From an uncultured Verrucomicrobiae bacterium (GTDB lineage Bacteria > Verrucomicrobiota > Verrucomicrobiia > Limisphaerales > UBA11358): DNA of 64,000 nt. Position numbers and translations under genes: made by a program. The stretch spans positions 8,067 to 72,066 of the forward strand of contig CAWJHF010000016.1 of assembly GCA_963842445.1 (NCBI GenBank), written 5' to 3'. Positions 38,313-52,410 of this stretch are shown piece by piece (position 1 is the stretch's first letter; the number at the start of each line of letters is the position of its first letter). The notes under the pieces are model-generated. The model ran no database searches. It was not told the origin of the DNA and was given only the letters and a program-made list of their open reading frames with translations.

Positions 38313-39896
38313 TCATCCTCCAGCACCAACTGTCCACGTTGACAGTTGATTGCCAACCGTTCCGGGTGGGGATGGCGGCGGATGGGCGACCGGCTTCTCC
38401 ATCTCGGGTATCCGTTCCGTGCGGGACACCAATGAAGCGTAGCGGCCAAGCTTCTCTTCGTAGCAACGGTGGTAAAATTCGGGGAGGGAAACGGAACCCC
38501 CTTCGTGGAACGACCTGAACGCACGATCCGTCTTAAGTTCCTGCTGCAACCGGCGAAAGGTGGCCAGGTCCTGACGCAGGCTGAACGTCCGCAGCGCGTG
38601 CAACAGACTGAATCCGATGGTTGACTTCGTCACCAGCCGCCGCGTCAACATCCGCGTGGACGTCATTGCGGAGTAAATCTCGATGAGCTTGTCGTAATAT
38701 TCGACCGGAGGATAGTTCGGCATCGTCGTTACGAGGTAAGGCGTGTAGTAAAAACTGAAAGGCATCGGCTTCAAAATGCTGCCTTTGGCGAGCGCCCGGT
38801 CGTAGAGCGGAGTGTTGCCAAAGGGAGTCGGAATGTTAACCGTGGGCCAGACGTAAGGGAGCGAACGGATGAATTCCTTGGTCAGCTCAACCGGTTCGTC
38901 GCCGTAATCAACCTCGGAGCCGAACATGAAATTGGCTTGCAACCCCGGGACATATTCCCGCAGCACGCGAAAATGTTCCACGACGTGCTTCAACTTCTCC
39001 TTGGGGGCCATCGCACCAACCCCGGCCTTGTTGGAATAGCTGGTCCATGCCTCGATCCCCGGCGCGATGTAAAGGCAATTTGTCTCCTTCAAACGCTGCA
39101 ACCGGGACCCGCGCAGGATCGAAAGAGAACTCTCCATGATGTAGGGATTACGGGCTTTTTCAGGAACCTTCTCGATGATGCCCAGGACCTGATCAAACTT
39201 CACTCCGAAGTTGGGATCGTGGTAAGTGACCTTGACGCCGGGCAGTTTTTTGGAAATGTAGCGTAAATCGGCTTCGAGCCCTTCCAGCGGGAGCACCGCA
39301 TACGGGCTGTTCCAATCCACGCAGAAGTCGCAACTGTAAGGACAGCCCACACTGCTTAACAAGGGCACCGAACCGACGCCCCGCGCTCGGCCCCGGGTGA
39401 ACACGGCTTTGACAATTTCCGGCATCCGCTCCTCGATGCTGGGGATTTCCTTCAAAGGCCGTCCGCTGCTGATGATGGAGTGGCGGTCGAAGCTGCCGCG
39501 CAGAATGTCGTTTATCAACGTCTTGTCGCAGTCTTTAACGACGAGGTCGAAAAACCGGAGACAATCGGTAGGGAAGGACTTGGCGTGCGGTCCACCGATG
39601 ACCGTCAGGGTTTTTTCGGTGCGATAAAGCTTGGCCAGGGCGTAGGCCAGCGCGCTGGCCTGGGTGTAGGTTGAAATGAAGACCACGTCCAGGTCGTCTG
39701 GCAGCAATCTTTTCGGATCTTGATGTCCGTAAAACGTGGCGTAGAACGTCTGATGACCGAGTTGGCGGCACCAGACGGCCACCACCTGTGGGGTGATGCT
39801 GCAATAATACCTCTTGAAATGGGCGCCATAGGCCGACTCAACCCGGTTCCGGGACTCTGATTCCACGAGCAATTCGAGGATGCCGACTCTCAGCAT
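38313..39896 (-). CDS. B12-binding-domain-like radical SAM protein
   Basis: CX3CX2C cluster motif GCPYSCDFC preceded by a Rossmann-like N-terminal domain (DVVFISTYTQ..TVIGGPHA). Confidence 0.8.
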   Translation of the reverse strand: MLRVGILELLVESESRNRVESAYGAHFKRYYCSITPQVVAVWCRQLGHQTFYATFYGHQDPKRLLPDDLDVVFISTYTQASALAYALAKLYRTEKTLTVIGGPHAKSFPTDCLRFFDLVVKDCDKTLINDILRGSFDRHSIISSGRPLKEIPSIEERMPEIVKAVFTRGRARGVGSVPLLSSVGCPYSCDFCVDWNSPYAVLPLEGLEADLRYISKKLPGVKVTYHDPNFGVKFDQVLGIIEKVPEKARNPYIMESSLSILRGSRLQRLKETNCLYIAPGIEAWTSYSNKAGVGAMAPKEKLKHVVEHFRVLREYVPGLQANFMFGSEVDYGDEPVELTKEFIRSLPYVWPTVNIPTPFGNTPLYDRALAKGSILKPMPFSFYYTPYLVTTMPNYPPVEYYDKLIEIYSAMTSTRMLTRRLVTKSTIGFSLLHALRTFSLRQDLATFRRLQQELKTDRAFRSFHEGGSVSLPEFYHRCYEEKLGRYASLVSRTERIPEMEKPVAHPPPSPPGTVGNQLSTWTVGAGG

Positions 39897-40159
39897 GGTA
39901 GTGGGTTCACGGCGTTGCGGAGTTGGTCTGCGCCGCCGAATTTGCCGATGATTTCCGCCACGTTGCCGTGTTGTGAAATCGGCGGGACTTTCAGTGCGTC
40001 GGGCAGCGTGACTTGGAATTCGCCGTCGAAGGCCGGGGACAGGTGGAATTTCTCGTTGGACCGAAAATCCGTCACAAGCTCTTTAGCCTTTGCAAAGACC
40101 GCATCAAACCCGGCTGGCATGGTGGGAGTGAGTGTGCGCCGAAGATTTATCAGCGTCAA
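39890..40159 (-). pseudogene. hsdR C-terminal (EcoEI_R_C-like) tail remnant 1
   Basis: DGEFQVTLPDALKVPPISQHGNVAEIIGKFGGADQLRNAVN parallels the intact HsdR end DGELQFTLPDVLKVPPISFHGNVNEIVGKFGGTDQLRNAVN. DNA homology spans 39905-40030. Its stop overlaps the radical SAM ATG. Confidence 0.75.
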
Positions 40160-40219
40160 TGCTCTTCAGGATGAGCCGTCCACGGGGTGTTTACCCCATA
40201 GACGGAATGAGGCACCAAG

Positions 40220-40609
40220 TCAGCTTTCGGTCACGTCATTGCACACAGGTTGCCAGCGGAGAATGAGATCCCGTTCCTCCGTGCATCGGGCCCCCTGACC
40301 GGCGGTAGAATAATGGACATGGACATGCGTAGCGCCATTCGCAATGGCGTTATCCAGCGTCACGTGACCCTCAAGTCGCTGGTGCAGATCTCGAGTTTGA
40401 GCAATGTAGATGGGAATCCAACTACCGTCCTCGGATTGTTTGGCATAAATGTAATTGCCTGGCAGCGGCCTGAAAGCAGTGTTAATGGGATGAATCTCGT
40501 ATTGATACTCGTTGCCGGACTGCCCGAGCCAACGGATGGATAGGGACTGCGTGCTCTGCGGCTGCAGGTGACGACCGAATAAACGTTTTAGCAAGTTCAC
40601 CTTGTTCAA
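40220..40609 (-). CDS. small GIY-YIG-like protein (non-ATG start)
   Basis: YQYEIHPINTAFRPLPGNYIYAKQ....WIPIYIAQTRDLHQRLEGH....AIANGATHVHVH fits a small GIY-YIG-like family pattern I recall. Only TTG or GTG starts are available. Confidence 0.45.
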   Translation of the reverse strand: MNKVNLLKRLFGRHLQPQSTQSLSIRWLGQSGNEYQYEIHPINTAFRPLPGNYIYAKQSEDGSWIPIYIAQTRDLHQRLEGHVTLDNAIANGATHVHVHYSTAGQGARCTEERDLILRWQPVCNDVTES

Positions 40610-40721
40610 ATCAGTCCATTAAATGAGCACTCTGTCAAGCGCTGAATCTCGTCGTTGTCAGACTGGTTAGTCAGTCCCCGTGGACACTACGAGGGGAATG
40701 CCGTTCGAGCAGGGCGCGGCA

Positions 40722-40773
40722 GGCACGGTCGCCTGTCGCGGCGAAGCCTGGCGAAAGCCGGAAGGATGGCGGG
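40722..40773. repeat. REP-like element type 2, copy 1
   Basis: ggcacggtcgcctgtcgcggcgaagcctggcgaaagccggaaggatggcgg aligns with 42766-42815. Confidence 0.45.
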
Positions 40774-40842
40774 GAGCAAGGCGTCCAACCCGGCGGCGGT
40801 CTCGGTTTGCAGGCGCTTCAGTCCGTCAACCTCCGCCACCAT
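40766..40842 (-). pseudogene. hsdS 3'-tail remnant (EVDGLKRLQTETAAGLDALLPAIL..), with the distal end replaced by REP type 2
   Basis: The reverse strand reads MVAEVDGLKRLQTETAAGLDALLPAIL. The intact HsdS end is EVDALTRLQAETAAKLDALLPAILDRAFRGEL. Confidence 0.6.
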
Positions 40843-40921
40843 TTGGCTCTCCCGCGTTCCATTTCAGTATGGCCTCGCTCCATCTGATGCAACGGCAAAT
40901 AATGTGGCTTCGACCACACCT

Positions 40922-41476
40922 TCACGGCGCGGGTTCCGCCAGCAATTTTTTGATGACCGGCTCGACGTACTCCGGCTGCAGACCGATGACGCGGACAATT
41001 CGTTTGCGGTCAATGATGGCGTAAGTGGGATAGTAATGCACGGCCCAGGCTTTCTCGGATTTCAATTCGGGATCGCGGGCGGCCGGATATTGGATGTGAT
41101 GTTCCTGGGCGTTGGCCGCAAATTGTTCCTGACCATCACTGGACGTGCAGACCCCGATGATGACCAGTCCCTGATCCTTGTATTTTTTCAGGAGTTCGTT
41201 GTTATGGGGAATGGCCCTCATGCAGGGGCCACACCAGGTGGCGTAAAAATCCACAACAACGACTTTGCCCTTGATGTCGTTGGCGGTTATGCCGCCATTA
41301 ATCCAATCGCTGACGTGAAAGGCGGGGAAGGGCTTGCCTTCCAGGGCGGCGTGGGCAGCGCGGTACTCAGGCTTGTCGTCCCAAGTCCAAGTGTCGGGAA
41401 ATTCGCCCGCCCGAGCGGCCTGTCCGCCCAAAACGAGTGAACCCAGTGCAATGAGCAACAATTTCTTGGTGGTCAC
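40922..41476 (-). CDS. secreted TlpA/redoxin-family thiol-disulfide oxidoreductase
   Basis: A WCGPC active site in VVVDFYATWCGPCMRAIP. The GTG start at 41476 gives the signal peptide (M)TTKKLLLIALGSLVLGGQAARA. Confidence 0.85.
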   Translation of the reverse strand: MTTKKLLLIALGSLVLGGQAARAGEFPDTWTWDDKPEYRAAHAALEGKPFPAFHVSDWINGGITANDIKGKVVVVDFYATWCGPCMRAIPHNNELLKKYKDQGLVIIGVCTSSDGQEQFAANAQEHHIQYPAARDPELKSEKAWAVHYYPTYAIIDRKRIVRVIGLQPEYVEPVIKKLLAEPAP

Positions 41477-41516
41477 ATAATCAGAGTTATCACAAATCGC
41501 GATGGCTGACAATAGA

Positions 41517-41603
41517 TTACAATTCTCCTTTGAAGGCGCGGTCGAGCATGGCGGGGAGCAAGGCGTCCAGTTCGACGGCGGTCTCGGCTTGCAGGTAGTT
41601 CAT
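41517..41603 (-). pseudogene. hsdS 3'-tail remnant preserved as a 28-aa mini-ORF
   Basis: MNYLQAETAVELDALLPAMLDRAFKGEL*. It starts 5 nt after the stop of the upstream lipoprotein gene and ends 4 nt before the tracked TTG start of the redoxin ORF. Confidence 0.65.
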
Positions 41604-41608
41604 GGATT

Positions 41609-42721
41609 TCACTGTTCCTGCCGTTTCAGTTCAATCTCGACCATTTCGCAGTTGTCATCGAAGCCGGCATTCTGCAGACCCGGTGTGAAGGTGAGATTCA
41701 TCACCCGGCCATTCTCCCGAAACAGTTCCGGATGCAAGTAGGCACAATACACCAGCTCCACACGTTTCCCCTGACGATATTCGGGCACTTCGATGCGCGC
41801 GAGCGGCGGACTCCAAGGGCCATAAGGCGTATCCGCAACATGGAACCGAATCTCCCGCGGGTGATCGAAGTCGCTCGACGAAGCCATGACATACTTTGCC
41901 AGATACGGATTCCAAGCAACGGAGACTTGACCGGGGACGTTTTTGACCAGAAACGTTGCGGCCGCTTGCCGAGACGAGAATTTCGGACCAGCACCCGTGT
42001 AGAACTCGTAGGCATCGGGGTCCTCGATTTTCTCCGGGCGCACCCGGGCCAGAGCGACGCCCTGCTTCCCTTTGTTTTCCTTGATCTCGTATAGATAAAT
42101 CCACCCGTCCGCCTCAAGAACTTGAGCCGCTCCAACTGGAAAACGCCAATCCCCGTGCGGACGAAGCCGCTCGTATGGGCCGAGCGCAACCTTTGCCCGG
42201 CCGAGGCCGGAACCGACGCCGCGAAAATCCCATTGTCCCTTCCCAAAAATCTCCATCAGCGTATAAAAAAGGTAGTATTGACCGTTCACGTGGATTCCGC
42301 CCAGCGCCCAAATTCCATGGCGCTTCGCAGTTTCGTCCGGGAAATACGCAAATGGCGAGACGGCATCACCATTGCTGGACACGAGATAAGTGAAGGCCGG
42401 CGGATAACTTCTGGCATTCTCCCCAAGAAAGGCGATGGAGCAGGATACGGCTCCTCCGGCGAAGTGCGGAGTCCCATCAGCGAACCGCGAGCCTTTGAAG
42501 GTGTCGCCGAAAACCCAGATCGCCCCGCCCGGGACCGCGAATGACTGTCCGCCATCCTGGGAAACAACTGAAGCCCGGGCGTGCGACTCGTTCCAAAGCG
42601 AGCCGAGGAAATTGGTTTGGACAATCTCAAAAGTCCCGCCCGCCTGCTTTTCCGTCGGCATGGAGGTGGAACATCCCGCAACGATGACTATCAGACCAAG
42701 TGCGATGAAAAGTTGTTTCAT
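41609..42721 (-). CDS. lipoprotein, DUF4185-like / glycoside-hydrolase-like beta-propeller
   Basis: Lipobox MKQLFIALGLIVIVAGC (ATG 42721). The motifs IWVFGDTF and GGIHVNGQYYLFY resemble DUF4185. Confidence 0.5.
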   Translation of the reverse strand: MKQLFIALGLIVIVAGCSTSMPTEKQAGGTFEIVQTNFLGSLWNESHARASVVSQDGGQSFAVPGGAIWVFGDTFKGSRFADGTPHFAGGAVSCSIAFLGENARSYPPAFTYLVSSNGDAVSPFAYFPDETAKRHGIWALGGIHVNGQYYLFYTLMEIFGKGQWDFRGVGSGLGRAKVALGPYERLRPHGDWRFPVGAAQVLEADGWIYLYEIKENKGKQGVALARVRPEKIEDPDAYEFYTGAGPKFSSRQAAATFLVKNVPGQVSVAWNPYLAKYVMASSSDFDHPREIRFHVADTPYGPWSPPLARIEVPEYRQGKRVELVYCAYLHPELFRENGRVMNLTFTPGLQNAGFDDNCEMVEIELKRQEQ

Positions 42722-42765
42722 AATTCCCCTTCTTGTCGCGCCGAAATCGGATGAAGGCGGATGAA

Positions 42766-42815
42766 GGCGCGGTCGCCTGTCCCGTCGTAGCCAAGCGAAG
42801 ATGGAAGAATGGCGG
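42766..42815. repeat. REP-like element type 2, copy 2
   Basis: ggcgcggtcgcctgtcccgtcgtagccaagcgaagatggaagaatggcgg, in the hsdS-lipoprotein spacer. Confidence 0.45.
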
Positions 42816-42878
42816 ATTTCCTCTCCGCCTCGAACGGGGAGAGGATGAAAGGTGAGGTGTCGAATTGACTGGCGGTAA

Positions 42879-44075
42879 TCATAATTCACCTCGAAATGCC
42901 CGATCCAAAATCGCTGGCAGCAAGGCGTCCAGTTTGGCGGCGGTTTCGGCTTGCAGGCGCGTCAGCGCGTCCACCTCCGCCTGCAACGCGTCCAGCTCGG
43001 CCACGATCCGGCGCTGCTCGGCGAGCGGAGGCGTTGGAATTTCCAAATCACGAATATCGCCAAGTGAAATGTTTGGGCGTGCCGTTTCAACTTTTCCACC
43101 GTGAATTGTATCTTGCGCAATTGGGCTAAGAAGAAAGTGAACGAGGAAATCTGGCACCAACTTTTCTTTGTCCGGGCTAATCACGCCGACGGCTTGGTTG
43201 ACGTTTGCATCGCCCAAATCTCCGGGCACAGCGCACGCTCGTCCGATAGACGCGCCGACGAGATTTATCAGAACGTCATCTTTACGCAATTGGCAGCGCG
43301 ACAATTTTTCATGGAAGCCTTGCGGGATGTGAATAGCGTTGCGCGGGTCAAGGCTGCCCCACAGGACATTTTCGCTTCGGATGAAAAGCGGACCTGTATC
43401 TTGGTAAGTGAATCCTTGCCATTCTGGTGATTCGCCCTTCGTGACGCGACTCGACAAATCTTCAAGCCGTGAAGCGCCAAAATCCTTCGCAGCAGAAATA
43501 AAGAATGTGTTGCGTCCGGCGCTACGAAGCGCCTCGGCTTCTTCGGCGGCTTGGTGGCGGAGGGTGCGGGCCTCGTGGATTTGGGCGGCCAGGGCCTCAA
43601 TCCGCGCCACCACCCGCCGCTGCTCCGCCAACGGCGGCAACGGAATTTCGCAAGCGAGAAAAATTTTCGGCCTGACAGCGGCATAGCCAGTCGTGCCTTT
43701 CGCCTCCGCGTCCAACTGCTCTTGTAGAAAGTTCGCGTCGAAGATGGCTTTGAGCCAACGCCGATCAAGCTTGTCCTCACGAATATCGAACAGGAAGAAG
43801 TGGTTTGTGCAAAGTGCGCCTTCACCTTCCGGCGGAACGAAACCAATCGCGCCTTTCTTGCCCCAGATTTCGGACAGGATAACTTGCCCGGCTTTTGCAA
43901 GCTGATGGCGTTTCATCTTGAGCATCGCGCCGTCCGTTGGAGCATCAAGCACAACTCCTTTGCCGTAGAGTTTTACCGAGAGCTTCCGGTATTCTCGCGG
44001 TTCAGGTGCTTCGATGTAATCGGTGTAGTGCGTGAGCACTTCGCCCAACTTCACGGTTGGCCATTGCTTGCTCAT
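42879..44075 (-). CDS. hsdS: type I restriction-modification specificity subunit
   Basis: Two target-recognition halves, each followed by a conserved helix (LPPLAEQRRVVARIEAL... and PPLAEQRRIVAELDAL...). The ATG at 44075 overlaps the hsdM stop (ATGA). Confidence 0.9.
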   Translation of the reverse strand: MSKQWPTVKLGEVLTHYTDYIEAPEPREYRKLSVKLYGKGVVLDAPTDGAMLKMKRHQLAKAGQVILSEIWGKKGAIGFVPPEGEGALCTNHFFLFDIREDKLDRRWLKAIFDANFLQEQLDAEAKGTTGYAAVRPKIFLACEIPLPPLAEQRRVVARIEALAAQIHEARTLRHQAAEEAEALRSAGRNTFFISAAKDFGASRLEDLSSRVTKGESPEWQGFTYQDTGPLFIRSENVLWGSLDPRNAIHIPQGFHEKLSRCQLRKDDVLINLVGASIGRACAVPGDLGDANVNQAVGVISPDKEKLVPDFLVHFLLSPIAQDTIHGGKVETARPNISLGDIRDLEIPTPPLAEQRRIVAELDALQAEVDALTRLQAETAAKLDALLPAILDRAFRGEL

Positions 44076-45652
44076 GCCTGCTTTGCCAAAAGTTTCTGGA
44101 TGTTGCCCATGATTTCCGCGATGCGCTGCTCTTTCTTCAGGATTTCGGCGGCGAGTTGCGCGGGCGGCAGGTGCGTGATGTCTTCCTTGGCGCGCGGGTT
44201 CTTGCGGTCGAGATTGCATCCGTTCGCCAGCAACTCGGCGGCGGGCACCACCCAGGCCCGGTCACTTTCCTTTCGGTTATTCCACCATTGGATGCAATCG
44301 GCGAATTCCTCAAACTGGATGGGTGCGGTTTTGGTGTAATTCTTCCGGCCTTCGGGCAGCGGTTGTTCGTAATACCAGACTTCGCGCGTCGGGCCGGAGC
44401 GGTCGAAGAACAGCAGGTTCGTCGGGATGCTGGTGTAGGGCGCAAACACGCCGTTCGGCAGCCGGACGATGGTGTGCAGGTTAAATTCTTTCAGCAATTC
44501 CTCCTTGATGCGGGCGCAAACGCCATCGCCGAACAACGTGCCATTGGGAACGACCACGGCGGCCCTTGCATAGGTAGGGACGCTGCGCTGCGGCGTCCGG
44601 TCATCGCAGCGCGATGACCCTACCTTTTTCAGCTTCCGCATGATTAACTGGAGGAACAGCAGCGCCGTTTCCGCCGTTTGTTTGTCTTCGGGGAAATTGC
44701 CTTGGATGCCTTTCTCCTCCTCGCCGCCGAAAGGCGGGTTGGTGAGGATCACGTCCACGCGGTCGCGCTCGCCGATGTCCGTCAGCTTGAAGCGGAGCGA
44801 ATTGCCGGGATCAATCTGCGGCGCGTCGAGGCCGTGCAACAACAGGTTCATCTGGCAGAGCAGATACGGCAGCGTCTTGGGTTCGCAGCCAAAAAGAGAT
44901 TTTTCCTGCAAGACCTTGCGGTCAGCCACCGTCTTAACTTGTTTTGACAAGTGATTAAACGCTTCAACGAGGAAGCCGCCTGTGCCGCACGCCGGATCGA
45001 GCACGGTCTCGCCTAAGCGCGGGTCGGTGACGGCGACCATGAGGCGCACGACGGCGCGTGGGGTGTAAAACTCGCCGGAATCGCCCGCCGCATCGCGCAT
45101 CTCGCGGAGCATGGATTCGTAGAGCGCACCCAGCGTCTGCAGCTCGCTGCTGGAGGTGAAATGAATGCCGGCAAGCTTATTGATGACATCGCGCAACAGG
45201 TAGCCGCTGACCATGCGGTTCTGCACTCCCTTGAACACGGTGGCAATCACGTCCCGCCGATCGTCGCCATTGGAACTGGTGAGCGTGCGCAGGTAACGGA
45301 ACAGGCCTGCGCCACGCTTGCCGTCCGGGCGCGTGGTCTCCTCGTTGTTGATGAAGGCGAGCAATTCGTCGCCGGTGATGCCGTCGGACTTGGCGGCCCA
45401 ATCGCGCCAGCGATAGGGCGGTTCGATGGCCGGCTTGAACTTTTTGGCGGCGAGCTTGGCCTCGCCCTCGCGCTGAATTTCCAGGTCGTCCAGAAATTTC
45501 AGGAACATGATCCATGTGAGCATCGGCAACCGGTCAAGGTCGCCATTCAGCCCCTTGTCCTTTCTCATGATGTCGCGCGCAGATTTCAGGAGCGCCCCGA
45601 GTGATTGGGCGGTGGTAGGAGAAGCCGGAACGAGCTTAGGATTCGGCGCCAT
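44072..45652 (-). CDS. hsdM: type I restriction-modification N6-adenine DNA methyltransferase subunit, with an 18-aa in-frame palindromic-element insertion
   Basis: HsdM N-domain (LDRLPMLTWIMFLKFLDD), motif I DPACGTGGF and motif IV NPPFGG. The start is set at MAPNPK (ATG 45652). Confidence 0.9.
   Translation of the reverse strand: MAPNPKLVPASPTTAQSLGALLKSARDIMRKDKGLNGDLDRLPMLTWIMFLKFLDDLEIQREGEAKLAAKKFKPAIEPPYRWRDWAAKSDGITGDELLAFINNEETTRPDGKRGAGLFRYLRTLTSSNGDDRRDVIATVFKGVQNRMVSGYLLRDVINKLAGIHFTSSSELQTLGALYESMLREMRDAAGDSGEFYTPRAVVRLMVAVTDPRLGETVLDPACGTGGFLVEAFNHLSKQVKTVADRKVLQEKSLFGCEPKTLPYLLCQMNLLLHGLDAPQIDPGNSLRFKLTDIGERDRVDVILTNPPFGGEEEKGIQGNFPEDKQTAETALLFLQLIMRKLKKVGSSRCDDRTPQRSVPTYARAAVVVPNGTLFGDGVCARIKEELLKEFNLHTIVRLPNGVFAPYTSIPTNLLFFDRSGPTREVWYYEQPLPEGRKNYTKTAPIQFEEFADCIQWWNNRKESDRAWVVPAAELLANGCNLDRKNPRAKEDITHLPPAQLAAEILKKEQRIAEIMGNIQKLLAKQA
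44573..44624. repeat. REP-like structured palindromic element type 1, copy C (inside the hsdM coding sequence)
   Basis: ggtagggacgctgcgctgcggcgtccggtcatcgcagcgcgatgaccctacc belongs to the same family as 61174-61225 and 62499-62549. In hsdM it is translated as VGSSRCDDRTPQRSVPT. Confidence 0.8.
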
Positions 45653-45848
45653 GAGATTTGGTACGGTATGGAACCGGTGTTTCGCGCAACGCAGCGGCCT
45701 CCGTGACGGAAATCCACACGGCTTTGCCATCCCGCCAGACGGCCAGCGGACGGCCGCGCCGCTGATGGTCGGCAACGACTTTGGCCACGGCATCCGCCAG
45801 TGCCTGTATCGCCTTTTGTGTCAGAGAGGATTCGGTTCGTTTTTTCAT
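45636..45848 (-). CDS. small hypothetical protein (70 aa), possible partner of the zeta-like ATPase
   Basis: MKKRTESSLTQKAIQALADAVAKVVADHQRRGRPLAVWRDGKAVWI... Its ATG overlaps the ATPase stop (ATGA), and its 3' end overlaps the hsdM start by 17 nt. Confidence 0.45.
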   Translation of the reverse strand: MKKRTESSLTQKAIQALADAVAKVVADHQRRGRPLAVWRDGKAVWISVTEAAALRETPVPYRTKSHGAES

Positions 45849-46430
45849 GGTGCAAACCGCCGTCGCAATTGTTCGTAAAGCGCGGCATCGCCAATCGTAG
45901 TGTGGCCCGCTTCGTCTTTGAAGATTAAACGCGGCGTGTCGGACGAGTTGTCGAAGAAATGCAATGTGTCGAGCCACGGGCGGTAAAGCGTGAAAAGATT
46001 GCCCACCGTGCGGCCAAATCGCCGCCGGACATCGCGCTCCGGGACGTTGTGTCCGCCGCTCTCGACGCGATCGCGAATGCGCAGCAAGGCCAGGTCGGGA
46101 CTGGGAATCCACAGATAGAACATGTGCAGCCGGAAGCCGGCCTTTTTCGCGCCGCGCAGCAACGGCACATAGGAGCGACCCGACAAAAATGGTTTCAAAG
46201 GCGAAATCGGTTCGCGCTGCCGTGAATTCCGCGATGCGCTCCAGAACGGCGCGCCCGACGCGCAACATGCCCGCGTCTGGATCGAAGGGCGAATAGGCGC
46301 GGGCCAGCAAATCTGGATTGATGAAATTGCGGCAGTTGGCGTAGAGCGGCAGGAACTCCGTGGCAAACGTGGTTTTGCCTGCGCCGTTCGGGCCGGCGAT
46401 GACATAGCAGTTGGCAAACTTACGCGGCAT
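45845..46430 (-). pseudogene. zeta-toxin-like / COG4185-type P-loop ATPase, split by a +1 frameshift in a homopolymer
   Basis: Frame A carries MPRKFANCYVIAGPNGAGKTTF...TDFAFET. Frame B carries LSGRSYVPLL...GGHNVPERDVRRRF...FFDNS. The frames join if one base is removed from the A5 run at 46185-46189. Confidence 0.7.
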
Positions 46431-46506
46431 ACAGCAGCGTTTGCAGTTGGTTCACGGCGTTGCGGAGCTGGTCTGCGCCGCCGAATTTGCCGATGATTTC
46501 ATTCAC
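46420..46506 (-). pseudogene. hsdR 3'-tail remnant 2 (..VNEIIGKFGGADQLRNAVNQLQTLLYAA*)
   Basis: It begins directly after the Fic stop. Its terminal codons overlap the ATPase ATG. It contains the 50-nt conserved core. Confidence 0.7.
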
Positions 46507-46513
46507 GATTTGC

Positions 46514-47632
46514 TCATTTGATTTTAGCCTTTGGCTTTCGACCTTTGGCGGTTCCGTTATTACCCTCTTTATTACCCTCTTTCAAGGGTAATACCCTCTT
46601 TTGCCATTTCGCACCCGGGCCGCGGCCGAGACATTCGACGTGGCCGGCAGCCTTCAGGTCGCGCAACAAAAGACGAATCATGTCGCGGCTGACGCCGGGG
46701 CAGAGCCGCTCAAGGTCGGTGATGCCGAATTCGCCGGCAAGGTTTTCAATGGCGTGCTCGACCAGTTCGGTTTTCGCGCCGCGCGGCGATTTGAGCTGGC
46801 CGACGCGCTGCTCAAATTCCTTACAGGCTTGCGTGAGGATGAAGAGCAGGAAATTCATCGCCGGCCAAGGATCATGTTTGCTTTCGTGCCAGCGCTGGGA
46901 ACTCTGTTCCAGGACTTCGTAATACCGTTCCTTGTTTTCCTCGATGAGGCGTTCCAGGCTGATGTAGCGTCCGGCTTCAATGCCGCAGTGATAGCACGCC
47001 AGCAGAAAGAGCAGACGCGAGACGCGGCCATTACCATCGCGAAAGGGGTGGATGCAGAGAAAATCCAGATTCAACGCCGCCGTCAGGACGAGTGGATGAA
47101 CCCATCTTTCGCGCCAGCCACGCTCCCACAGTTCAACCATTTCCGCCATCGCCCGGGGTGTTTGTTTTGCCGGAACGGATTTGAAACGGACGCGGCTGCG
47201 GCCATCGGCATAGGTCTGGATAATGTCCACATCTTTTTCTTTGTAACGACCGGCGTCCCAGACCTGGCCTTGGCAGAGTTTGTGGAGCCGCTTGATGGTG
47301 GTTTCAGCGATTGGCAGTTTTGCGCCGGATTCGTGGATGAGTTTCAATGCGTCCCGATAACCGCGCACTTCCTCCTCGTCGCGGTCGCGCAAAGCGGGTT
47401 TACCGAAAATGAGCGTAGCGACGCGGGATTTGTCCACTTCCACGCCTTCGATGCGGTTTGATGAAATAGCGCTTTCAATCAAGGCGTGCTCGCGCAGCAC
47501 CTTGAGCTTTTGCGGTGACTGGCGGGTGAACAACTCTTGTTTTCCGCGCGCCTCGGCCAGGTCGGTCAAATACCACGTCGTCCGCGTCGGCAACGCGGCT
47601 GGTTCGGCGGCGAGTTGGCGGAGGGTCATCAT
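46514..47632 (-). CDS. Fic-family protein (AMPylase-type) with a C-terminal winged-helix-like domain
   Basis: Canonical Fic motif HPFRDGNGRVSR. N-terminal Fic-N-like helices. Confidence 0.9.
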   Translation of the reverse strand: MMTLRQLAAEPAALPTRTTWYLTDLAEARGKQELFTRQSPQKLKVLREHALIESAISSNRIEGVEVDKSRVATLIFGKPALRDRDEEEVRGYRDALKLIHESGAKLPIAETTIKRLHKLCQGQVWDAGRYKEKDVDIIQTYADGRSRVRFKSVPAKQTPRAMAEMVELWERGWRERWVHPLVLTAALNLDFLCIHPFRDGNGRVSRLLFLLACYHCGIEAGRYISLERLIEENKERYYEVLEQSSQRWHESKHDPWPAMNFLLFILTQACKEFEQRVGQLKSPRGAKTELVEHAIENLAGEFGITDLERLCPGVSRDMIRLLLRDLKAAGHVECLGRGPGAKWQKRVLPLKEGNKEGNNGTAKGRKPKAKIK

Positions 47633-47635
47633 GGG

Positions 47636-47743
47636 TCAAGCGGAATAGAGCAGCGATTGGAGTTGGTTGACGGCGTTGCGGAGCTGGTCCGTGCCGCCGA
47701 ATTTACCGATGATTTCGTTTACGTTACTGAGAGATCGCGTCAT
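47636..47743 (-). pseudogene. hsdR 3'-tail remnant 3, preserved as a 35-aa mini-ORF
   Basis: MTRSLSNVNEIIGKFGGTDQLRNAVNQLQSLLYSA*. Its ATG overlaps the cupin gene stop (ATGA), and its stop lies 3 nt before the Fic ATG. Confidence 0.7.
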
Positions 47744-48114
47744 TTGACAGGACTCCTGCTTTCTTCAACCGATGACGGCCACCGGACGGTGATGACAACC
47801 GCTTTGGTGAGAGCTTCCCACCTGTGTTCTCGTTTGTCCTCCCAGACGACGAAGTTTCCGGGAGACCGCAAAACAAAAGTATCGGTTTTCCTACTGGAAC
47901 GGATTTGCACGAGAAACTCTCCGGACAAAAGTAACGTAATGGTTTTCTTTCCAGGCTGCGATTTCCAATCGCCGGATTCACCAGTTTCATGCACACCCCA
48001 TTTGATTTCGATATCGTCAGTCGCTCTCAATGAACGTTTCTTCACAAAGTGGCCGACAATCCAACCACGTGTGGGCTGACCACAGACTACTGCGTTTCCA
48101 AACTCTGGGCGCAT
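47740..48114 (-). CDS. cupin-like small protein
   Basis: PTRGWIVGHFV...DIEIKWGVH..G......TLLLSGEF....VVWEDKREHRWEALTKAVVITVRWPS resembles small single-domain cupins I have seen. Weak. Confidence 0.4.
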   Translation of the reverse strand: MRPEFGNAVVCGQPTRGWIVGHFVKKRSLRATDDIEIKWGVHETGESGDWKSQPGKKTITLLLSGEFLVQIRSSRKTDTFVLRSPGNFVVWEDKREHRWEALTKAVVITVRWPSSVEESRSPVK

Positions 48115-48115
48115 A

Positions 48116-48340
48116 CTATCGTGGGTCCCTCTGTTTTATCGGCTGTGAAGTTGTTCTCGGATTCTCGTATCCTTGGCGTATTGTTTCCAACCATCTGTCG
48201 CCTCCTCGGAGGCTTCGCCCGCCGGACGAAACAAAGAAGTCGATCCCTCCCAGAAACGATTTGTTTAGCTGCTGTTGCAACCAGAGCGCAATCGGAGCTT
48301 CCTCATGCACATGCGAAATAAACACCAAGGGCTTACTCAT
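48116..48340 (-). CDS. TIR-like domain N-terminal fragment (74 aa)
   Basis: KPLVFISHVHEEAPIALWLQQQLNKSFLGGIDFFVSS...GGDRWLETIRQ looks like the first strand, helix and strand of bacterial TIR domains. The ORF ends before the region where the catalytic Glu would lie. Confidence 0.4.
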   Translation of the reverse strand: MSKPLVFISHVHEEAPIALWLQQQLNKSFLGGIDFFVSSGGRSLRGGDRWLETIRQGYENPRTTSQPIKQRDPR

Positions 48341-48346
48341 ATCATA

Positions 48347-50725
48347 TCAGGTTGCATACAGCAGCATTTGAAGTTTGTTCACGGCGTTGCGGAGCTGGTC
48401 CGTGCCGCCGAATTTGCCGACGATTTCGTTGACGTTGCCGTGGAATGAAATCGGCGGGACTTTCAGCACATCGGGCAGGGTGAATTGGAGTTCGCCGTCG
48501 GTGGCGTATTTCTCCAGCAGGTCTTTCAGGATTTCCTGGGCTTCCAAGCTGAAGTAGCCGAAGAAAGCCGATTGCTGTCTCTTAAAGCGGTCGGCGCGCT
48601 GGCGGCGGGTGACCACGGGCGCGTTGAAGGCGAGGTGGCACAGCAGGTCGAATGGGTCGGCGTCCGGTTTGCCCACCTGCGCGGCGACTTGCTGGAAATC
48701 AATCCCGCGCTCGGCAAGCTGCTGGATGATGTCGGCGCGCTGGCCGGCGTCGGCCCAGCGGGCGCGCAAATCCTCCGGGCTGGCGCAGAGCGTCCGCACC
48801 TTCTCGGCGGTGTAGTCGGTGAGCTTGACGACGCGGAGTTGTTTGCCGTCGGAATCAAGCTCGTGGACCAGTTCGGCGGCAATTTCGACCTGTCCGCCGT
48901 CGAAGTAGTACTTTCGGCGTTCGGACGGTGGACCGTCCACGATGACGGGCGGTTGGACTTCTTCCTGAAGCTTGCCGTCGTCATCCTCGGTTTCCTCCGG
49001 CGTGATGACTTCGGTTTCTTTCACCTTGCCGTATTCGTCAATTTCCTCCTGCGTGGCGAACGCCGGATCACCGTCGAAGGTTGGGTCGGCGAAGTTGCGC
49101 GTGGCCGTGCCGGTGTAGTCGAGGATGTTGAACCAGAGCTTGCCGTAGTCGTCGCGCACGCGCGTGCCGCGCCCGATGATTTGCTTGAACTCGACCATCG
49201 AGTTGACAAGGCGCACGAGCACGACGTTGCGGCAGGTGGGCGCGTCGAGGCCGGTGGTGAGCAGTTGCGAGGTGGTCAGGATGACGGGCGTGCGCGTCTC
49301 CACGTCCTGAAACCGCTGCATGTGGCCGCGCCCGATGTCGCCTTCGTCGGCGGTGACGCGGCAGACGTAATCGGGGAATTGCTGGACGAGGTCGGTGTTC
49401 AGATTGTTGAGCGCGGTGCGCATCTCGGATGCGTGTTCCTGGTCCACGCAAAAGACGATGGTCTTGGCGAAGCGGTCGTTTTTTTTGAGGAAGTCGGTCA
49501 AGTGTTTCGCGATGATCTCCGTGCGCTTCAGTAACGCCACTTTTCGCTCGAAATCTGCCGTGGTGTATTCCCCGTCAGGGATGCGGCGACCGTAACGGTC
49601 GAGGTCGTCTTTGCTCGGGCGCCAGCCGGCAGCATCCCATTGTGTGATGATGCGGTGGACGCGATATGGCGCGAGGAAACCGTCGTCAATGCCCTGTTTG
49701 AGGCTGTAGGTGTAAATCGGGTTGCCGAAGTAGAGATAGGTGTCCTTGTTGTCCTGGCGCAACGGCGTGGCGGTCATGCCGAGTTGATAGGCGGGCTCAA
49801 AGTATTCGAGGATTTCGCGCCAGTTGGAATCTTCCTTGGCGCTACCGCGGTGGCACTCGTCCACGATGATGAGGTCGAAGAAGTCAGGCGCGAATTCTTT
49901 GTAAAGACCGGGACGACGTTCGTCCTTGGCGATGGATTGATAGGTGGCGAAATACATCTCACGGCTGAACACGGCGTTACCGCCCTCAATCTTGTGCCGG
50001 GCGTCCCCGAATGGTGCGAAGATTTTGTCCTTGGGGTCGTCCACGAGAAAGTTGCGGTCGGCGAGATACAGAATGCGTGGTTTTCTTTGGGGCTCGTTCT
50101 TCCGATTCCATTTCGAGGACCAAAGTTTCCAGCAAATTTGAAAGGCGACATCCGTCTTGCCCGTGCCGGTAGCCATCGTCAGCAACACCCGCTTCCTGCC
50201 TTGCAGAATGGCTTGCACGGCGCGGTCAATCGCGATGCACTGATAATAACGCGGTTCCCTCCCGGTAGTCAGATTGGCCGAAGTCAGCAGGCGTTGTGCG
50301 GCGGTGTCGTCCGTAAGTTTTTCCCCTGCACGAAGCCGTGACCAGAGTTCGGCCGGCGCCGGAAAGCTTCCAATCACCCGTTCTTTGCCGGTGAGGAAAT
50401 CAAACTCGACGATACCCTGGCCGTTGGTGGCATAGGCGAATTTCAGGCCGAGGATTTGGGCGTATTCCTTGGCCTGTTGCAAGCCATCCGCTGCTTTCTT
50501 GTATTGCGCCTTGGCTTCGACTACTGCCAAGGTGAAGTCGCGCGTATAGCGCAACAGGAAATCGGCGCGTTTGCCTTTGCGGCGTTCGGCCCGACTGCCA
50601 CGAACCACGATGCGTCCGGCGGTGAAATAGCGTTGCTCGGCGATGGAATGCGGGTCGTTGTCCCACCCGGCAGCTTGAAGCTTCGGCACAACGAATTTGC
50701 GGCATGTATCGGCTTCGGTTGACAT
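48347..50725 (-). CDS. hsdR: type I restriction enzyme R subunit (EcoAI/EcoEI-like, with an EcoEI_R_C-type tail)
   Basis: N-terminal nuclease region (ADFLL...VVEAK), helicase motifs MATGTGKT and DECHR, and the C-terminal tail LKVPPISFHGNVNEIVGKFGGTDQLRNAVNKLQMLLY. Confidence 0.92.
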   Translation of the reverse strand: MSTEADTCRKFVVPKLQAAGWDNDPHSIAEQRYFTAGRIVVRGSRAERRKGKRADFLLRYTRDFTLAVVEAKAQYKKAADGLQQAKEYAQILGLKFAYATNGQGIVEFDFLTGKERVIGSFPAPAELWSRLRAGEKLTDDTAAQRLLTSANLTTGREPRYYQCIAIDRAVQAILQGRKRVLLTMATGTGKTDVAFQICWKLWSSKWNRKNEPQRKPRILYLADRNFLVDDPKDKIFAPFGDARHKIEGGNAVFSREMYFATYQSIAKDERRPGLYKEFAPDFFDLIIVDECHRGSAKEDSNWREILEYFEPAYQLGMTATPLRQDNKDTYLYFGNPIYTYSLKQGIDDGFLAPYRVHRIITQWDAAGWRPSKDDLDRYGRRIPDGEYTTADFERKVALLKRTEIIAKHLTDFLKKNDRFAKTIVFCVDQEHASEMRTALNNLNTDLVQQFPDYVCRVTADEGDIGRGHMQRFQDVETRTPVILTTSQLLTTGLDAPTCRNVVLVRLVNSMVEFKQIIGRGTRVRDDYGKLWFNILDYTGTATRNFADPTFDGDPAFATQEEIDEYGKVKETEVITPEETEDDDGKLQEEVQPPVIVDGPPSERRKYYFDGGQVEIAAELVHELDSDGKQLRVVKLTDYTAEKVRTLCASPEDLRARWADAGQRADIIQQLAERGIDFQQVAAQVGKPDADPFDLLCHLAFNAPVVTRRQRADRFKRQQSAFFGYFSLEAQEILKDLLEKYATDGELQFTLPDVLKVPPISFHGNVNEIVGKFGGTDQLRNAVNKLQMLLYAT

Positions 50726-51023
50726 TCGTGATCTGGTCCCAGATCGATTCCCCGACCAAGCAGATTCAACAGCATCCTAAGCCGCGGCGGATTTTAGGCA
50801 ATGGCAAAACTTTGTGCAGAAAAGGCTTTTGCGAAGGGCGCGTCGCCGTTTTTTGGCGGCAGCATGGCAACAAGATCAAAGCGGTGTTGCAATTCCCCGA
50901 AACGCTCCGCTGAATCTCCGAACGGAAACATCACTCCCGTCGCGGAGTTCAATACACCAGCAACAATAACAGACCGGGACTTTCAGCGTCACTTGCTGGA
51001 ATTCCGGCAGTTTTGGAAACGTG

Positions 51024-51075
51024 ACATGCCCACGCCGCGAAGTTCGCGCTTTTCTTCGTTGGGAATCAGGATTAG
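51024..51075 (+). repeat. direct repeat copy B (right island boundary), 16 nt upstream of tRNA-Leu
   Basis: acatgcccacgccgcgaagttcgcgcttttcttcgttgggaatcaggattag. Both copies contain the palindrome CGCGAAGTTCGCG. Confidence 0.85.
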
Positions 51076-51091
51076 CGTTTGCCCACGAAGC

Positions 51092-51179
51092 GCCGGTGTG
51101 GCGAAATGGCAGACGCACAGGACTTAAAATCCTGGGACCATAAAAAGTCGTGTGAGTTCGAGTCTCACCACCGGCACCA
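51092..51179 (+). tRNA. tRNA-Leu (anticodon UAA), class II with long variable arm, CCA encoded
   Basis: Hand fold: acceptor GCCGGTG/CACCGGC, D arm GCG/CGC, anticodon stem CAGGA/TCCTG with loop CTTAAAA, 17-nt variable arm, T arm GTGAG-TTCGAGT-CTCAC, discriminator A, then CCA. Confidence 0.9.
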
Positions 51180-51471
51180 GCCTGCGCCCTTTGGGCTATG
51201 GCTCGGCAAGCCAACTAAATTTCGCTCGCGGCGTAGCAAGAGCGAAGGTTGCCGCGCCGTCGCGTAGCAAGGGCAGACTGTCAGAGACACACCACAAACG
51301 GACGTTGCGAGCTGCGGTTGACAGGCCAGTTCCACGATTGAACGCCTTTTGCTGGCGGTTTGTCAGACTTTCATCCTCGCCATTGGGCGCTGGAGCAACC
51401 GTGGAAATTTTACAGGAGATTCCTCCCGATTCGAGCGGGATTGCAAGCCGGGAACAACAAGCGAGTTGAAA

Positions 51472-52401
51472 ATGAATGAAACATCTGAAACCAAAGTACC
51501 AACCGGTCCAACCTCCGCCATGCCACCGCACGAACAACTGATGCGCCAGCATTTGCAGGAGGAAAATCTACCGCAGGCGGTCATGCCCACCTGCCCCATC
51601 AATAAGGTTTTAACCGGCCAGAAGGCGCTGGTCACCGGCGCCAATTCCGGCATCGGCCAGGCCGTCGCGCTGGCGCTCGCTCAGGCCGGCGCCGATGTCG
51701 TGATTAATTACGTCACACATCCTGAAGCCGCCGACGCCGTCGTGAAGGAAGCCGCCGGTTATGGCGTAAATGCTTACGCCCATCAAGCCGACATCAGCCG
51801 CGAAGATCAGGTTCAGGCGATGTTTCAGAAGATGATCCAGAAATTCGGCTCCATTGACGTTCTCGTCAACAACGCCGGCCTGCAAAAAGATTCGCCCATT
51901 GAAAACATGACGCTGGCCGACTGGCAGTTGGTCATCAACGTGAACCTGACCGGGCAGTTTCTTTGCGCCCGCGAGGCGATCCGGGAATTCAAGCGGCGCG
52001 GCATCCGTCCGGAAATTTCCTGCGCCGCCGGCAAAATCATCTGCATGAGTTCGGTGCATGAAGTCATTCCCTGGGCCGGCCACGTCAATTACGCCGCAAG
52101 CAAGGGCGGCGTGATGTTGATGATGAAAAGCATCGCGCAGGAGGTCGCGCCGTATCGCATCCGCGTGAACTCGATCTGCCCTGGTGCCATCCGCACCCCC
52201 ATCAACACGGAGGCCTGGAGCACACCGGAAGCTTACCGCCGGTTGATGAAACTGGTTCCCTACAAACGCATCGGCGAACCGAGTGACATCGGACACGCGG
52301 CCATCTGGCTGGCATCGGATTATTCGGATTACATCCACGGCGCGAGCATTTTCGTGGACGGTGGCATGACGCTGTATCCGGGATTTGAGACCGGCGGTTG
52401 A
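51472..52401 (+). CDS. short-chain dehydrogenase/reductase (glucose 1-dehydrogenase-like)
   Basis: TGANSGIGQA cofactor motif, NNAG, and the catalytic YAASKGG. Start at MNETSE (ATG 51472). Confidence 0.85.
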   Translation: MNETSETKVPTGPTSAMPPHEQLMRQHLQEENLPQAVMPTCPINKVLTGQKALVTGANSGIGQAVALALAQAGADVVINYVTHPEAADAVVKEAAGYGVNAYAHQADISREDQVQAMFQKMIQKFGSIDVLVNNAGLQKDSPIENMTLADWQLVINVNLTGQFLCAREAIREFKRRGIRPEISCAAGKIICMSSVHEVIPWAGHVNYAASKGGVMLMMKSIAQEVAPYRIRVNSICPGAIRTPINTEAWSTPEAYRRLMKLVPYKRIGEPSDIGHAAIWLASDYSDYIHGASIFVDGGMTLYPGFETGG

Positions 52402-52410
52402 AGCGAACGC

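Follow-up and report, generated by a model that had tools for sequence, protein, structure and literature searches.

Type I restriction-modification (R-M) operons can hold additional defence genes nested among their own, as reported for PrrC in EcoprrI, for TgvAB in the VPI-2 island of Vibrio cholerae and, more broadly, in the 'guilt-by-embedding' survey of Payne et al. 2024 (bioRxiv 10.1101/2024.01.29.577857; PMC11411939; PMC12707154). The accessible text of these reports describes the embedding and leaves the origin of the nesting unexplained; Payne et al. suggest a 'genomic sink'. Here we describe a related arrangement in a stretch of 64,000 nucleotides (nt) from an uncultured Verrucomicrobiae bacterium (GenBank assembly GCA_963842445.1, contig CAWJHF010000016.1), hereafter called the window. 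It contains a Type I R-M operon in which the 3' end of hsdR, the hsdR tail, is present in four copies, the intact gene end and three truncated copies named remnants 1 to 3, each of which abuts or overlaps the start of another gene. The array is probably best read as the scars of homology-anchored and illegitimate recombination in a slot for embedded defence genes, filtered for junctions that keep translation continuous. Embedding itself is already known; a non-exhaustive literature search returned no description of duplicated gene-end stubs that bound several slots, of their frequency or of their in-frame bias.

The last 84-135 nt of hsdR were found in four copies of the same orientation, with 0 expected by chance. 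The repeat search of the window placed them in one family, D1 (39875-39964, 46420-46509, 47636-47725 and 48347-48436), all direct. A 50-nt core was matched at three sites with 0-3 mismatches, versus 0.00 expected in shuffled sequence, and direct reading of the repeat alignment gave a fourth core site with 4 mismatches at remnant 1. When the window was searched by tblastn with the 45-amino acid (aa) tail, E values of 1e-27, 7e-18, 2e-13 and 3e-12 were obtained, and the next best match was 0.15. An earlier interpretation made from the letters alone (the sequence-only reading) had claimed the four copies, a core differing by at most 4 nt and junctions in which remnants 3, 2 and 1 abut or overlap the starts of a Fic, a zeta-like and a radical-SAM gene, and all of these were borne out. 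An assembly artefact, which would have undone that claim, is excluded because an independent 2.57-Mb contig of the European Nucleotide Archive (ENA; locus L039), colinear with the window and 99.19% identical over 36514-57623, carries the same tail copies. The GC profile showed no compositional break across the array.

The genes lie on the minus strand in the order hsdR, TIR-like open reading frame (ORF), 124-aa ORF, remnant 3, Fic, remnant 2, zeta-like ATPase and hsdM, followed by hsdS, DUF4185, a copy of the hsdS tail, an AhpC-like redoxin, a partial copy of the hsdS tail, a 129-aa ORF, remnant 1 and the radical-SAM gene (Table 1). The TIR fragment, the 124-aa ORF, Fic and zeta are thus all placed between hsdR and hsdM. 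By domain similarity to EcoEI, the operon is classed as a Type I R-M system with an EcoEI_R_C-type HsdR, and Pfam places HsdM and an HsdS with two target-recognition domains in the same operon. Remnant 3 is, as had been claimed, a 35-aa mini-ORF whose ATG overlaps the stop codon of the 124-aa ORF (ATGA), and it ends 3 nt before the Fic ATG (47632). The zeta ATG (46430) sits within the final codons of remnant 2.

Related loci were collected with the tail peptide. Species-representative genomes yielded 38 loci, almost all from metagenome-assembled genomes (MAGs) of Verrucomicrobiota, a metagenome scan yielded 79 further loci, and the comparative set comprised 118 related loci. In this hsdR family the operon runs hsdR, slot, hsdM, hsdS, with 0 to ~11 kb between the hsdR stop and hsdM, and the slot holds cargo in most of the loci. 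Tabulation of the genes downstream of the tails, the check suggested in the sequence-only reading, showed that cargo starts between -11 and +45 nt from the tail stop in most loci and is highly diverse. It includes OLD-like AAA_15 with TOPRIM, SIR2_2 (three loci), NB-ARC/NACHT, HD dGTPase-like, Zeta_toxin, DUF4268, Mrr_cat, ABC ATPases, DUF4062, GmrSD_N, ApeA-HEPN (HEPN_Apea), a helicase with a PRTase domain and SoFic-like Fic; TIR was also among the defence-type domains of the related loci. Judged by these domain families, which most of the genes carry, the cargo following the tails appears defence-like. The commonest cargo after hsdR tails is a zeta-like ATPase with a conserved small gene, observed in 16 loci (including L012 5493-6211 and L109 10080-10879). 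The homologue of the window zeta-like ATPase in L012 is intact (Zeta_toxin 5e-9), the small partner is 72 aa in L109 with a match spanning ~40-50 residues, and neither the ATPase nor the partner matches a PADLOC model.

To count tails, those with at least 2.5 kb of upstream sequence were considered and shared events were merged. Thirty stood at the ends of intact hsdR genes versus 33 independent stubs, so that the two kinds were similarly frequent. Overall, the stub 5' ends were scattered from 23 to 492 aa before the stop and skewed short. The 33 counted stubs were 28-492 aa long with a median of 74 aa, and 27 of them were no longer than 200 aa, compared with 26% under uniform breakpoints (binomial p = 5e-11). 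Stubs of the hsdM 5' head were also found (L002, L018, L021, L027, L028, L043, L046, L047, L089 and L113). In the window, hsdM likely starts at the M of MAPNPK, and its first ~60 codons correspond to the head that survives as stubs elsewhere.

Several junctions were shared between loci with different surroundings. One tail-to-zeta junction is shared by the window, L080, L109 and L112 (an overlap of -11 by ORF coordinates in L109 and L112, the junction sequence in L080), yet it is preceded by an hsdR piece of 28 aa, 177 aa or 492 aa, indicating that tail and cargo were inherited together and that the upstream truncations were independent. A fusion at the microhomology TGCCC(GA) in L027 and L046 places the final 43 hsdR codons in frame behind a complete hsdM start of 43 codons. 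The peptide junction of this HsdM::HsdR chimera, ..DRLP/DVLK.., is found again in protein P0094, and the 259-nt chimera unit is 87% identical between L027 and L046, with unrelated cargo on both sides. Similarly, a unit that joins a repetitive extragenic palindromic (REP)-like sequence to the tail is common to L004 and L012, and the cargo differs on both sides.

Whole arrays were rearranged as well. L112 reads hsdR, cargo, 177-aa hsdR piece, zeta, 94-aa hsdR piece, cargo, hsdM, and L109 reads hsdR, zeta, 112-aa hsdR piece, Fic, 68-aa tail, with zeta and Fic in the order opposite to that of the window; further arrays resembling the window were observed in L057, L046 and L099. The window Fic protein is 97% identical in amino acids to the product of the gene directly after an intact hsdR in L016. 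Shared junctions amid unrelated cargo, together with both Fic/zeta orders, therefore indicate exchange after the stubs had formed.

The junctions were also biased in reading frame. By manual count, 11 of 13 independent coding-to-coding fusions kept the frame (p ~2e-4 versus one third, binomial). Remnant 1, the HsdM::HsdR chimera, L063, L083 and six internal hsdR deletions that retain head and tail belong to the in-frame group, whereas L019 and L028 are out of frame. At least six independent in-frame internal deletions of hsdR were distinguished (L008/L086/L091/L097, L077, L078/L079, L082, L045 and L030), resulting in 'mini-HsdR' ORFs of ~85-310 aa in which the native start and 23-81 residues of the N-terminus are joined to 45-300 residues of the C-terminus. 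Without exception, the conserved block runs up to the hsdR stop codon and no further, and an ATG within the tail codons ..CTG TAT GCC GCx TAA serves several unrelated cargo genes as their start, for example the window zeta, hsdS of L003 and genes of L015 and L017. The in-frame bias would reflect selection against polar junctions, keeping downstream cargo and hsdM/hsdS expressed, and the window's relay of ATGA and near-abutting mini-ORFs fits selection for continuous translation.

These patterns can be arranged in the following scheme. The hsdR-hsdM gap and the position after hsdS serve as slots for embedded defence cargo in EcoEI_R_C-type operons, and cargo would pass between related operons by homologous recombination in the conserved flanking genes. 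Where homology anchored one side only and the other end was joined illegitimately, or where redundant copies were deleted later, a cassette would be stacked instead of swapped and would retain an end of a donor or resident gene, which could be the 3' tail of hsdR ahead of the cargo, the 5' head of hsdM behind it, or the 3' tail of hsdS. Clean recombination or further trimming of long homologous pieces would account for the shortness of the stubs, and their contact with the start of a gene under selection would account for their persistence. Open-frame junctions would be favoured since they avoid polar loss of expression of the downstream genes, and an existing stub would give each slot its own homology arms, so that cargo on either side could be exchanged again. 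The repeats and their prevalence, the range of cargo, the varying stub lengths, the relaxed constraint, the junctions shared amid different cargo, the in-frame bias and a strain-level patch in the hsdR body are observed; the one-sided homology mechanism, the reason for the short stubs and the polarity argument are what we infer. A bolder version, offered tentatively, is that HsdR tails, HsdM heads and HsdS tails, as conserved gene ends, act as portable homology arms of a recombinase-free, multi-slot array. Cassettes would spread with short stubs attached, every stub would open a further slot between the same arms, and selection would hold the stubs in frame so that translation runs through the entire string. 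If this were true, stand-alone hsdR tails would be beacons for new defence genes, and the in-frame mini-HsdR or HsdM::HsdR chimeras might have a regulatory role.

A gene-sized trace of exchange may be visible between the window and L039. The two differ at 172 positions, of which 82 fall in the hsdR body (48536-50746) and include 7 single-base insertions or deletions (indels) that break the gene in L039, and zero differences were found in 44498-48535 and 50747-52535. The 3' edge of this patch lies within 190 nt of the hsdR stop. The patch fits homologous exchange between hsdR alleles with different downstream cargo; alternatively, it could represent local decay of a pseudogenised hsdR in L039 or assembly noise.

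Several observations weigh against recombination in an embedded-defence slot as the source of the array. The recombination events would be known here from traces in the sequences, not by direct observation, and the loci were chosen by the tail search itself, so that remnants lacking a tail are invisible. An intact KFGG-type hsdR is present in 16 loci of the genome set, and among these additional tails in the slot are confined to the window. Degradation of hsdR, often extending to hsdM/hsdS, marks the loci of most stubs, and simple decay may therefore explain most of the stubs. The persistence of the tail is not explained by homology alone, because conservation of the hsdR tail, judged by amino acids or by synonymous sites, does not exceed that of the remaining gene. 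Two further observations could hint at a preferred site: the DRLP/DVLK junction recurs with different tail variants, and the 5' ends of five independent stubs lie within ~10 nt of each other (GGCAACGTGAAC).

The degraded state of most stub-bearing loci is what would be expected if tandem Type I operons or extra hsdR copies had simply been worn down by random deletions, with selected cargo shielding the ends next to it and the stubs taking no part in exchange. The many independent internal hsdR deletions that retain head and tail agree with this, as do the broad range of stub lengths, 23-492 aa, and the presence of remnant 1 as a nearly neutral relic beside the radical-SAM gene across several genomes. 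However, random deletion does not account for identical stub junctions amid unrelated cargo on both sides in different genomes, nor for Fic and zeta cassettes in both orders. Many stubs are moreover pristine, with zero non-synonymous change from the consensus, which points to fast turnover and not to slow decay. Wear alone is therefore regarded as an unlikely account of the array.

The clustered 5' ends and the recurring junction would also be in keeping with a site-specific system, in which a trans-acting recombinase recognises a site in the hsdR tail and inserts cassettes, in the manner of Ccr with SCC elements at the rlmH 3' end, of integrases whose element supplies a replacement gene end, or of integrons, and so would the stacking of cargo between direct repeats of a gene 3' end. 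Against such a system, no integrase, recombinase, transposase or Ccr-like gene was annotated in 21 kb around the array (called genes of L039, Pfam). The stub 5' ends range from codon -23 to codon -492, with no fixed short core at every boundary, nothing more than the stop codon marks the end of the conserved block, and the tails are joined to partners of different kinds (REP-like elements, hsdM head, other gene heads). All copies are direct repeats, which leaves no shufflon-type inversion, and viral copies of the tail were not found. A dedicated recombinase is thus very improbable.

Two other carriers were considered. Phage-borne cassettes were rejected after a viral scan (IMG/VR) that recovered no relative of the tail. 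A tRNA-targeted island was rejected since neither end of tRNA-Leu(TAA) recurs in the window. This tRNA gene (51092-51179, +) is separated from the hsdR start by 370 nt on the upstream side and turns its 5' side to the operon.

The sequence-only reading had offered two explanations for the tails, a recombination hotspot at which cargo is swapped or stacked and a functional peptide or RNA module. The first fits the comparison insofar as the tails mark such events: intact or as stubs, they precede dozens of unrelated defence-type genes, tail + zeta and tail + Fic units are found in varying combinations and in both orders, and junctions are shared where cargo differs. They are not an intrinsic hotspot. 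Among 16 intact hsdR genes, the final 30 codons have a synonymous-codon identity of 0.52, and values in the remaining gene span 0.43-0.70; on this ordinary conservation the tail was rejected as a DNA-level element or specially conserved recombination target.

The second explanation would have the stand-alone tail kept by selection ahead of cargo genes as a promoter element, an RNA or a peptide, for instance one that imitates the HsdR C-terminus in binding to the methylase. The placement of mini-ORF start codons at upstream stops, the bias of the junctions toward in-frame fusion and the recovery of 112 short tail-containing ORFs in a database search (see below) speak in its favour. The pattern of substitution does not. 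Relative to the consensus, the ratio of non-synonymous to synonymous changes (N/S) was 0.46 in intact tails and ~0.8 in full-length stubs. Pairs of stubs with a shared junction, which must have diverged as stubs, differ mainly non-synonymously, by 13 synonymous and 23 non-synonymous changes (S13:N23, N/S ~1.8; the neutral site expectation is ~3.2). Stubs carry stop codons, L-to-P and R-to-G changes, deletions and a frameshift, and even invariant motif residues are mutated. The stubs thus evolve under relaxed constraint, and the synonymous sites of the tail in intact genes are not unusually conserved. An Rfam search of the window returned tRNA only and no match in the tails. A promoter in the tail was likewise rejected: 5 promoter-like sites were found in 13.5 kb versus 4.1 expected from shuffles, with one weak site in remnant 1. 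A functional peptide or RNA is accordingly not supported, and a selected module is the least probable of the explanations weighed here.

Remnant 1 requires separate treatment. The sequence-only reading had all four tail copies delimiting one array; three of them do lie at the hsdR-hsdM slot, but remnant 1 belongs to an older unit of relic and radical-SAM gene, 2.7 kb beyond hsdS and outside the operon. In this remnant the first 31 codons of an unrelated gene are joined in frame to the hsdR tail, which is cut after ..AVN, and the resulting ORF overlaps the radical-SAM ATG (39896) by 7 nt. A 1.9-kb unit consisting of ~90 nt, the chimera and the radical-SAM gene is 93.5-95.5% identical in six other contigs, where the upstream neighbour is a response regulator or a DUF4172-Fic gene and no Type I operon is present. 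Chimera and radical-SAM gene are kept together in L119-L126, and the chimera is never entirely lost. Synonymous to non-synonymous counts were 5:6 to 6:15 in the chimera versus 46:25 to 55:32 in the adjoining radical-SAM gene; the invariant D of GGADQ is changed to P or H (GGAPQ, GGAHQ) in its relatives, one copy is frameshifted and another has an internal deletion. Remnant 1 lies outside the present array, as an old relic from which the radical-SAM gene can be recognised as former cargo.

A protein search with the remnant-1 ORF gave 112 matches, all of 43-130 aa, many annotated as PF08463 and some on contigs longer than 50 kb. They were solely orthologous chimeras and short tail-bearing ORFs, and no donor of the 31-aa head was seen among them. 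The head appears similar to the N-terminus of Type IIG/BREX-type methyltransferases, but a tblastn search against plasmids gave matches with E >= 1 only.

Table 1. Positions of the features in the window and the matches on which their annotation is based.
Feature	Position	Strand	Remarks
Intact hsdR, 792 aa	48347..50725	-	Pfam ResIII 4e-37, Helicase_C, EcoEI_R_C 2e-26; PADLOC REase_I PDLC03049 1e-218, full length
Reference hsdR tail, last 45 codons	48350-48484	-	End of intact hsdR
Truncated TIR-like ORF, 74 aa, cargo fragment	48116..48340	-	Begins 6 nt past hsdR stop
124-aa ORF, cargo	47740..48114	-	No Pfam or PADLOC match
hsdR-tail remnant 3, 35-aa mini-ORF	47636..47743	-	Homologous part 47642-47725
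Fic/DOC protein, 372 aa, cargo	46514..47632	-	Pfam Fic 7e-15; PADLOC SoFic 4e-33, also PDC-S04, PDC-S24
hsdR-tail remnant 2, 28 codons	46420..46506	-	Possible GTG start 7 nt past Fic stop
Zeta-toxin-like ATPase, frameshifted, with remains of small partner gene	45655..46430	-	Two overlapping ORFs; weak P-loop matches
hsdM	44072..45652	-	N6_Mtase 3e-60, HsdM_N; PADLOC MTase_I 4e-194
hsdS	42879..44075	-	Methylase_S, two stretches
Reference hsdS tail, last ~30 codons	42882-42971	-	Contains ..LQAETAAKLDALLPAILDRAF..
DUF4185 lipoprotein-like gene, between hsdS tail copies	41609..42889	-	Pfam DUF4185 1e-22
hsdS-tail copy 2, mini-ORF	41517..41612	-	Sequence ...LQAETAVELDALLPAMLDRAFKGEL; repeat family D2 (repeat span 41520-41612); tblastn 1e-10
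AhpC/TSA-redoxin-like gene, between hsdS tail copies 2 and 3	40922..41512	-	Pfam
hsdS-tail copy 3, partial	40762..40836	-	Repeat, alignment, tblastn E = 1e-8
hsdR-tail remnant 1, 76-aa chimeric ORF	39890..40120	-	hsdR-tail homology 39899-40033; orthologues P0001-P0005
B12-binding/radical-SAM gene	38313..39896	-	Weak Pfam matches

The hsdS tail is also present in three copies, which the sequence-only reading had overlooked. Duplicated hsdS tails were found in at least ten loci (including L001, L006/L071, L016, L021, L024, L050, L057 and L111), and the genes enclosed elsewhere are TIR + pentapeptide, HNH, HTH-M78 and others. Homologues of the AhpC-like gene of the window were observed in L015, L105 and L106, 1.7 kb downstream of hsdS.

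The small ORFs of the slot gave little by similarity. The TIR-like ORF matched TIR_2 with E = 1e-5 over profile positions 1-52 of 122 only, at a score below gathering. For the 124-aa ORF, the 'cupin' label given in the earlier interpretation found no support, and no homologue was detected among the other 118 loci. Neither the hsdR product nor the 124-aa ORF was matched in an exact-sequence look-up.

REP-like sequences were seen around the tails. In the window, a GC-rich REP-like motif (..GGTCGCCTGTCGCGGCGAAGCCTGGCGAA..) forms a 35-nt direct repeat of 83% identity at 40721-40755 and 42765-42799, and similar motifs stand just upstream of tail stubs in L035, L023 and L032. A 370-nt unit of a REP-like palindrome array and a 121-nt hsdR tail occurs four times in one MAG (L014 414-778 and 1360-1726; L029 187-557 and 573-951), and an IS200/RAYT-like gene lies between two of these copies. 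In this MAG, REP sequences may have taken the tail stub with them when they were copied.

Two side observations came from the searches. PADLOC holds a separate 219-position REase_I model, PDLC03050, that covers the HsdR C-terminal region only (residues 602-790 here), a hint that RefSeq contains enough C-terminal-only HsdR proteins to have seeded a separate model. The tblastn noise at ~24795-25900 of the window consists of identical peptides at 24795/25851 and at 25113/25641, as direct duplications at spacings of 528 and 1056 nt would produce; these have no relation to the tails.

Nested defence genes are used to discover immune systems, the route of nesting being unexplained, and the stubs would be material evidence of how it happens. 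What they indicate is that cassettes are exchanged through the conserved termini of the host genes and are now and then stacked when a join is one-sided. The in-frame bias suggests that rearrangement of the locus is limited by the need to express the entire string. As a search handle, a stand-alone HsdR C-terminus before an unrelated gene flags present or former embedded cargo; the radical-SAM gene is an example of such relic-flagged cargo in genomes that have lost the operon.

Compared with the embedded systems described so far, the locus has the same design of extra defence genes nested among hsdR, hsdM and hsdS in the same orientation. The cargo is similarly diverse; as far as the available text of those reports goes, it comprises ABC/OLD ATPases, GmrSD-like, Fic, SIR2 and STAND NTPases, and the window Fic matches the SoFic, PDC-S04 and PDC-S24 models. 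It differs in that stubs of the hsdR tail, hsdM head and hsdS tail bound several slots per operon, duplicated gene ends being a feature that the same text does not mention.

Among mobile elements, SCCmec forms composite islands at the 3' end of rlmH (orfX), and replacement gene ends are supplied by e14 and phage 21 in icd and by tRNA-targeting islands. Such elements resemble the window in having tandem cargo blocks, each bounded by a direct repeat of the 3' end of one target gene. In contrast, they employ a dedicated site-specific recombinase and a short fixed core, whereas here the 21-kb annotation holds none, the stubs are variable and the partners mixed. Integrons and hsdS shufflons share with the window an array of exchangeable modules in or beside a defence locus, and recombination in conserved parts of Type I genes. 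Unlike integrons, the 21 kb contain no IntI-type integrase gene, no attC-like site was found, though no search was aimed at such sites, and the repeats are direct and made of ordinary coding sequence; unlike the phase-variable hsdS shufflon, there are no inverted repeats and no invertase, and the hsdR- and hsdS-tail copies are all direct. Homology-facilitated illegitimate recombination, which reportedly operates in naturally transformable bacteria, is a process we only infer for these uncultured Verrucomicrobiota. It is said to insert DNA by one homologous anchor and a microhomology join, and this combination matches both the TGCCC(GA) junction between hsdM head and hsdR tail and the variable ends of the stubs.

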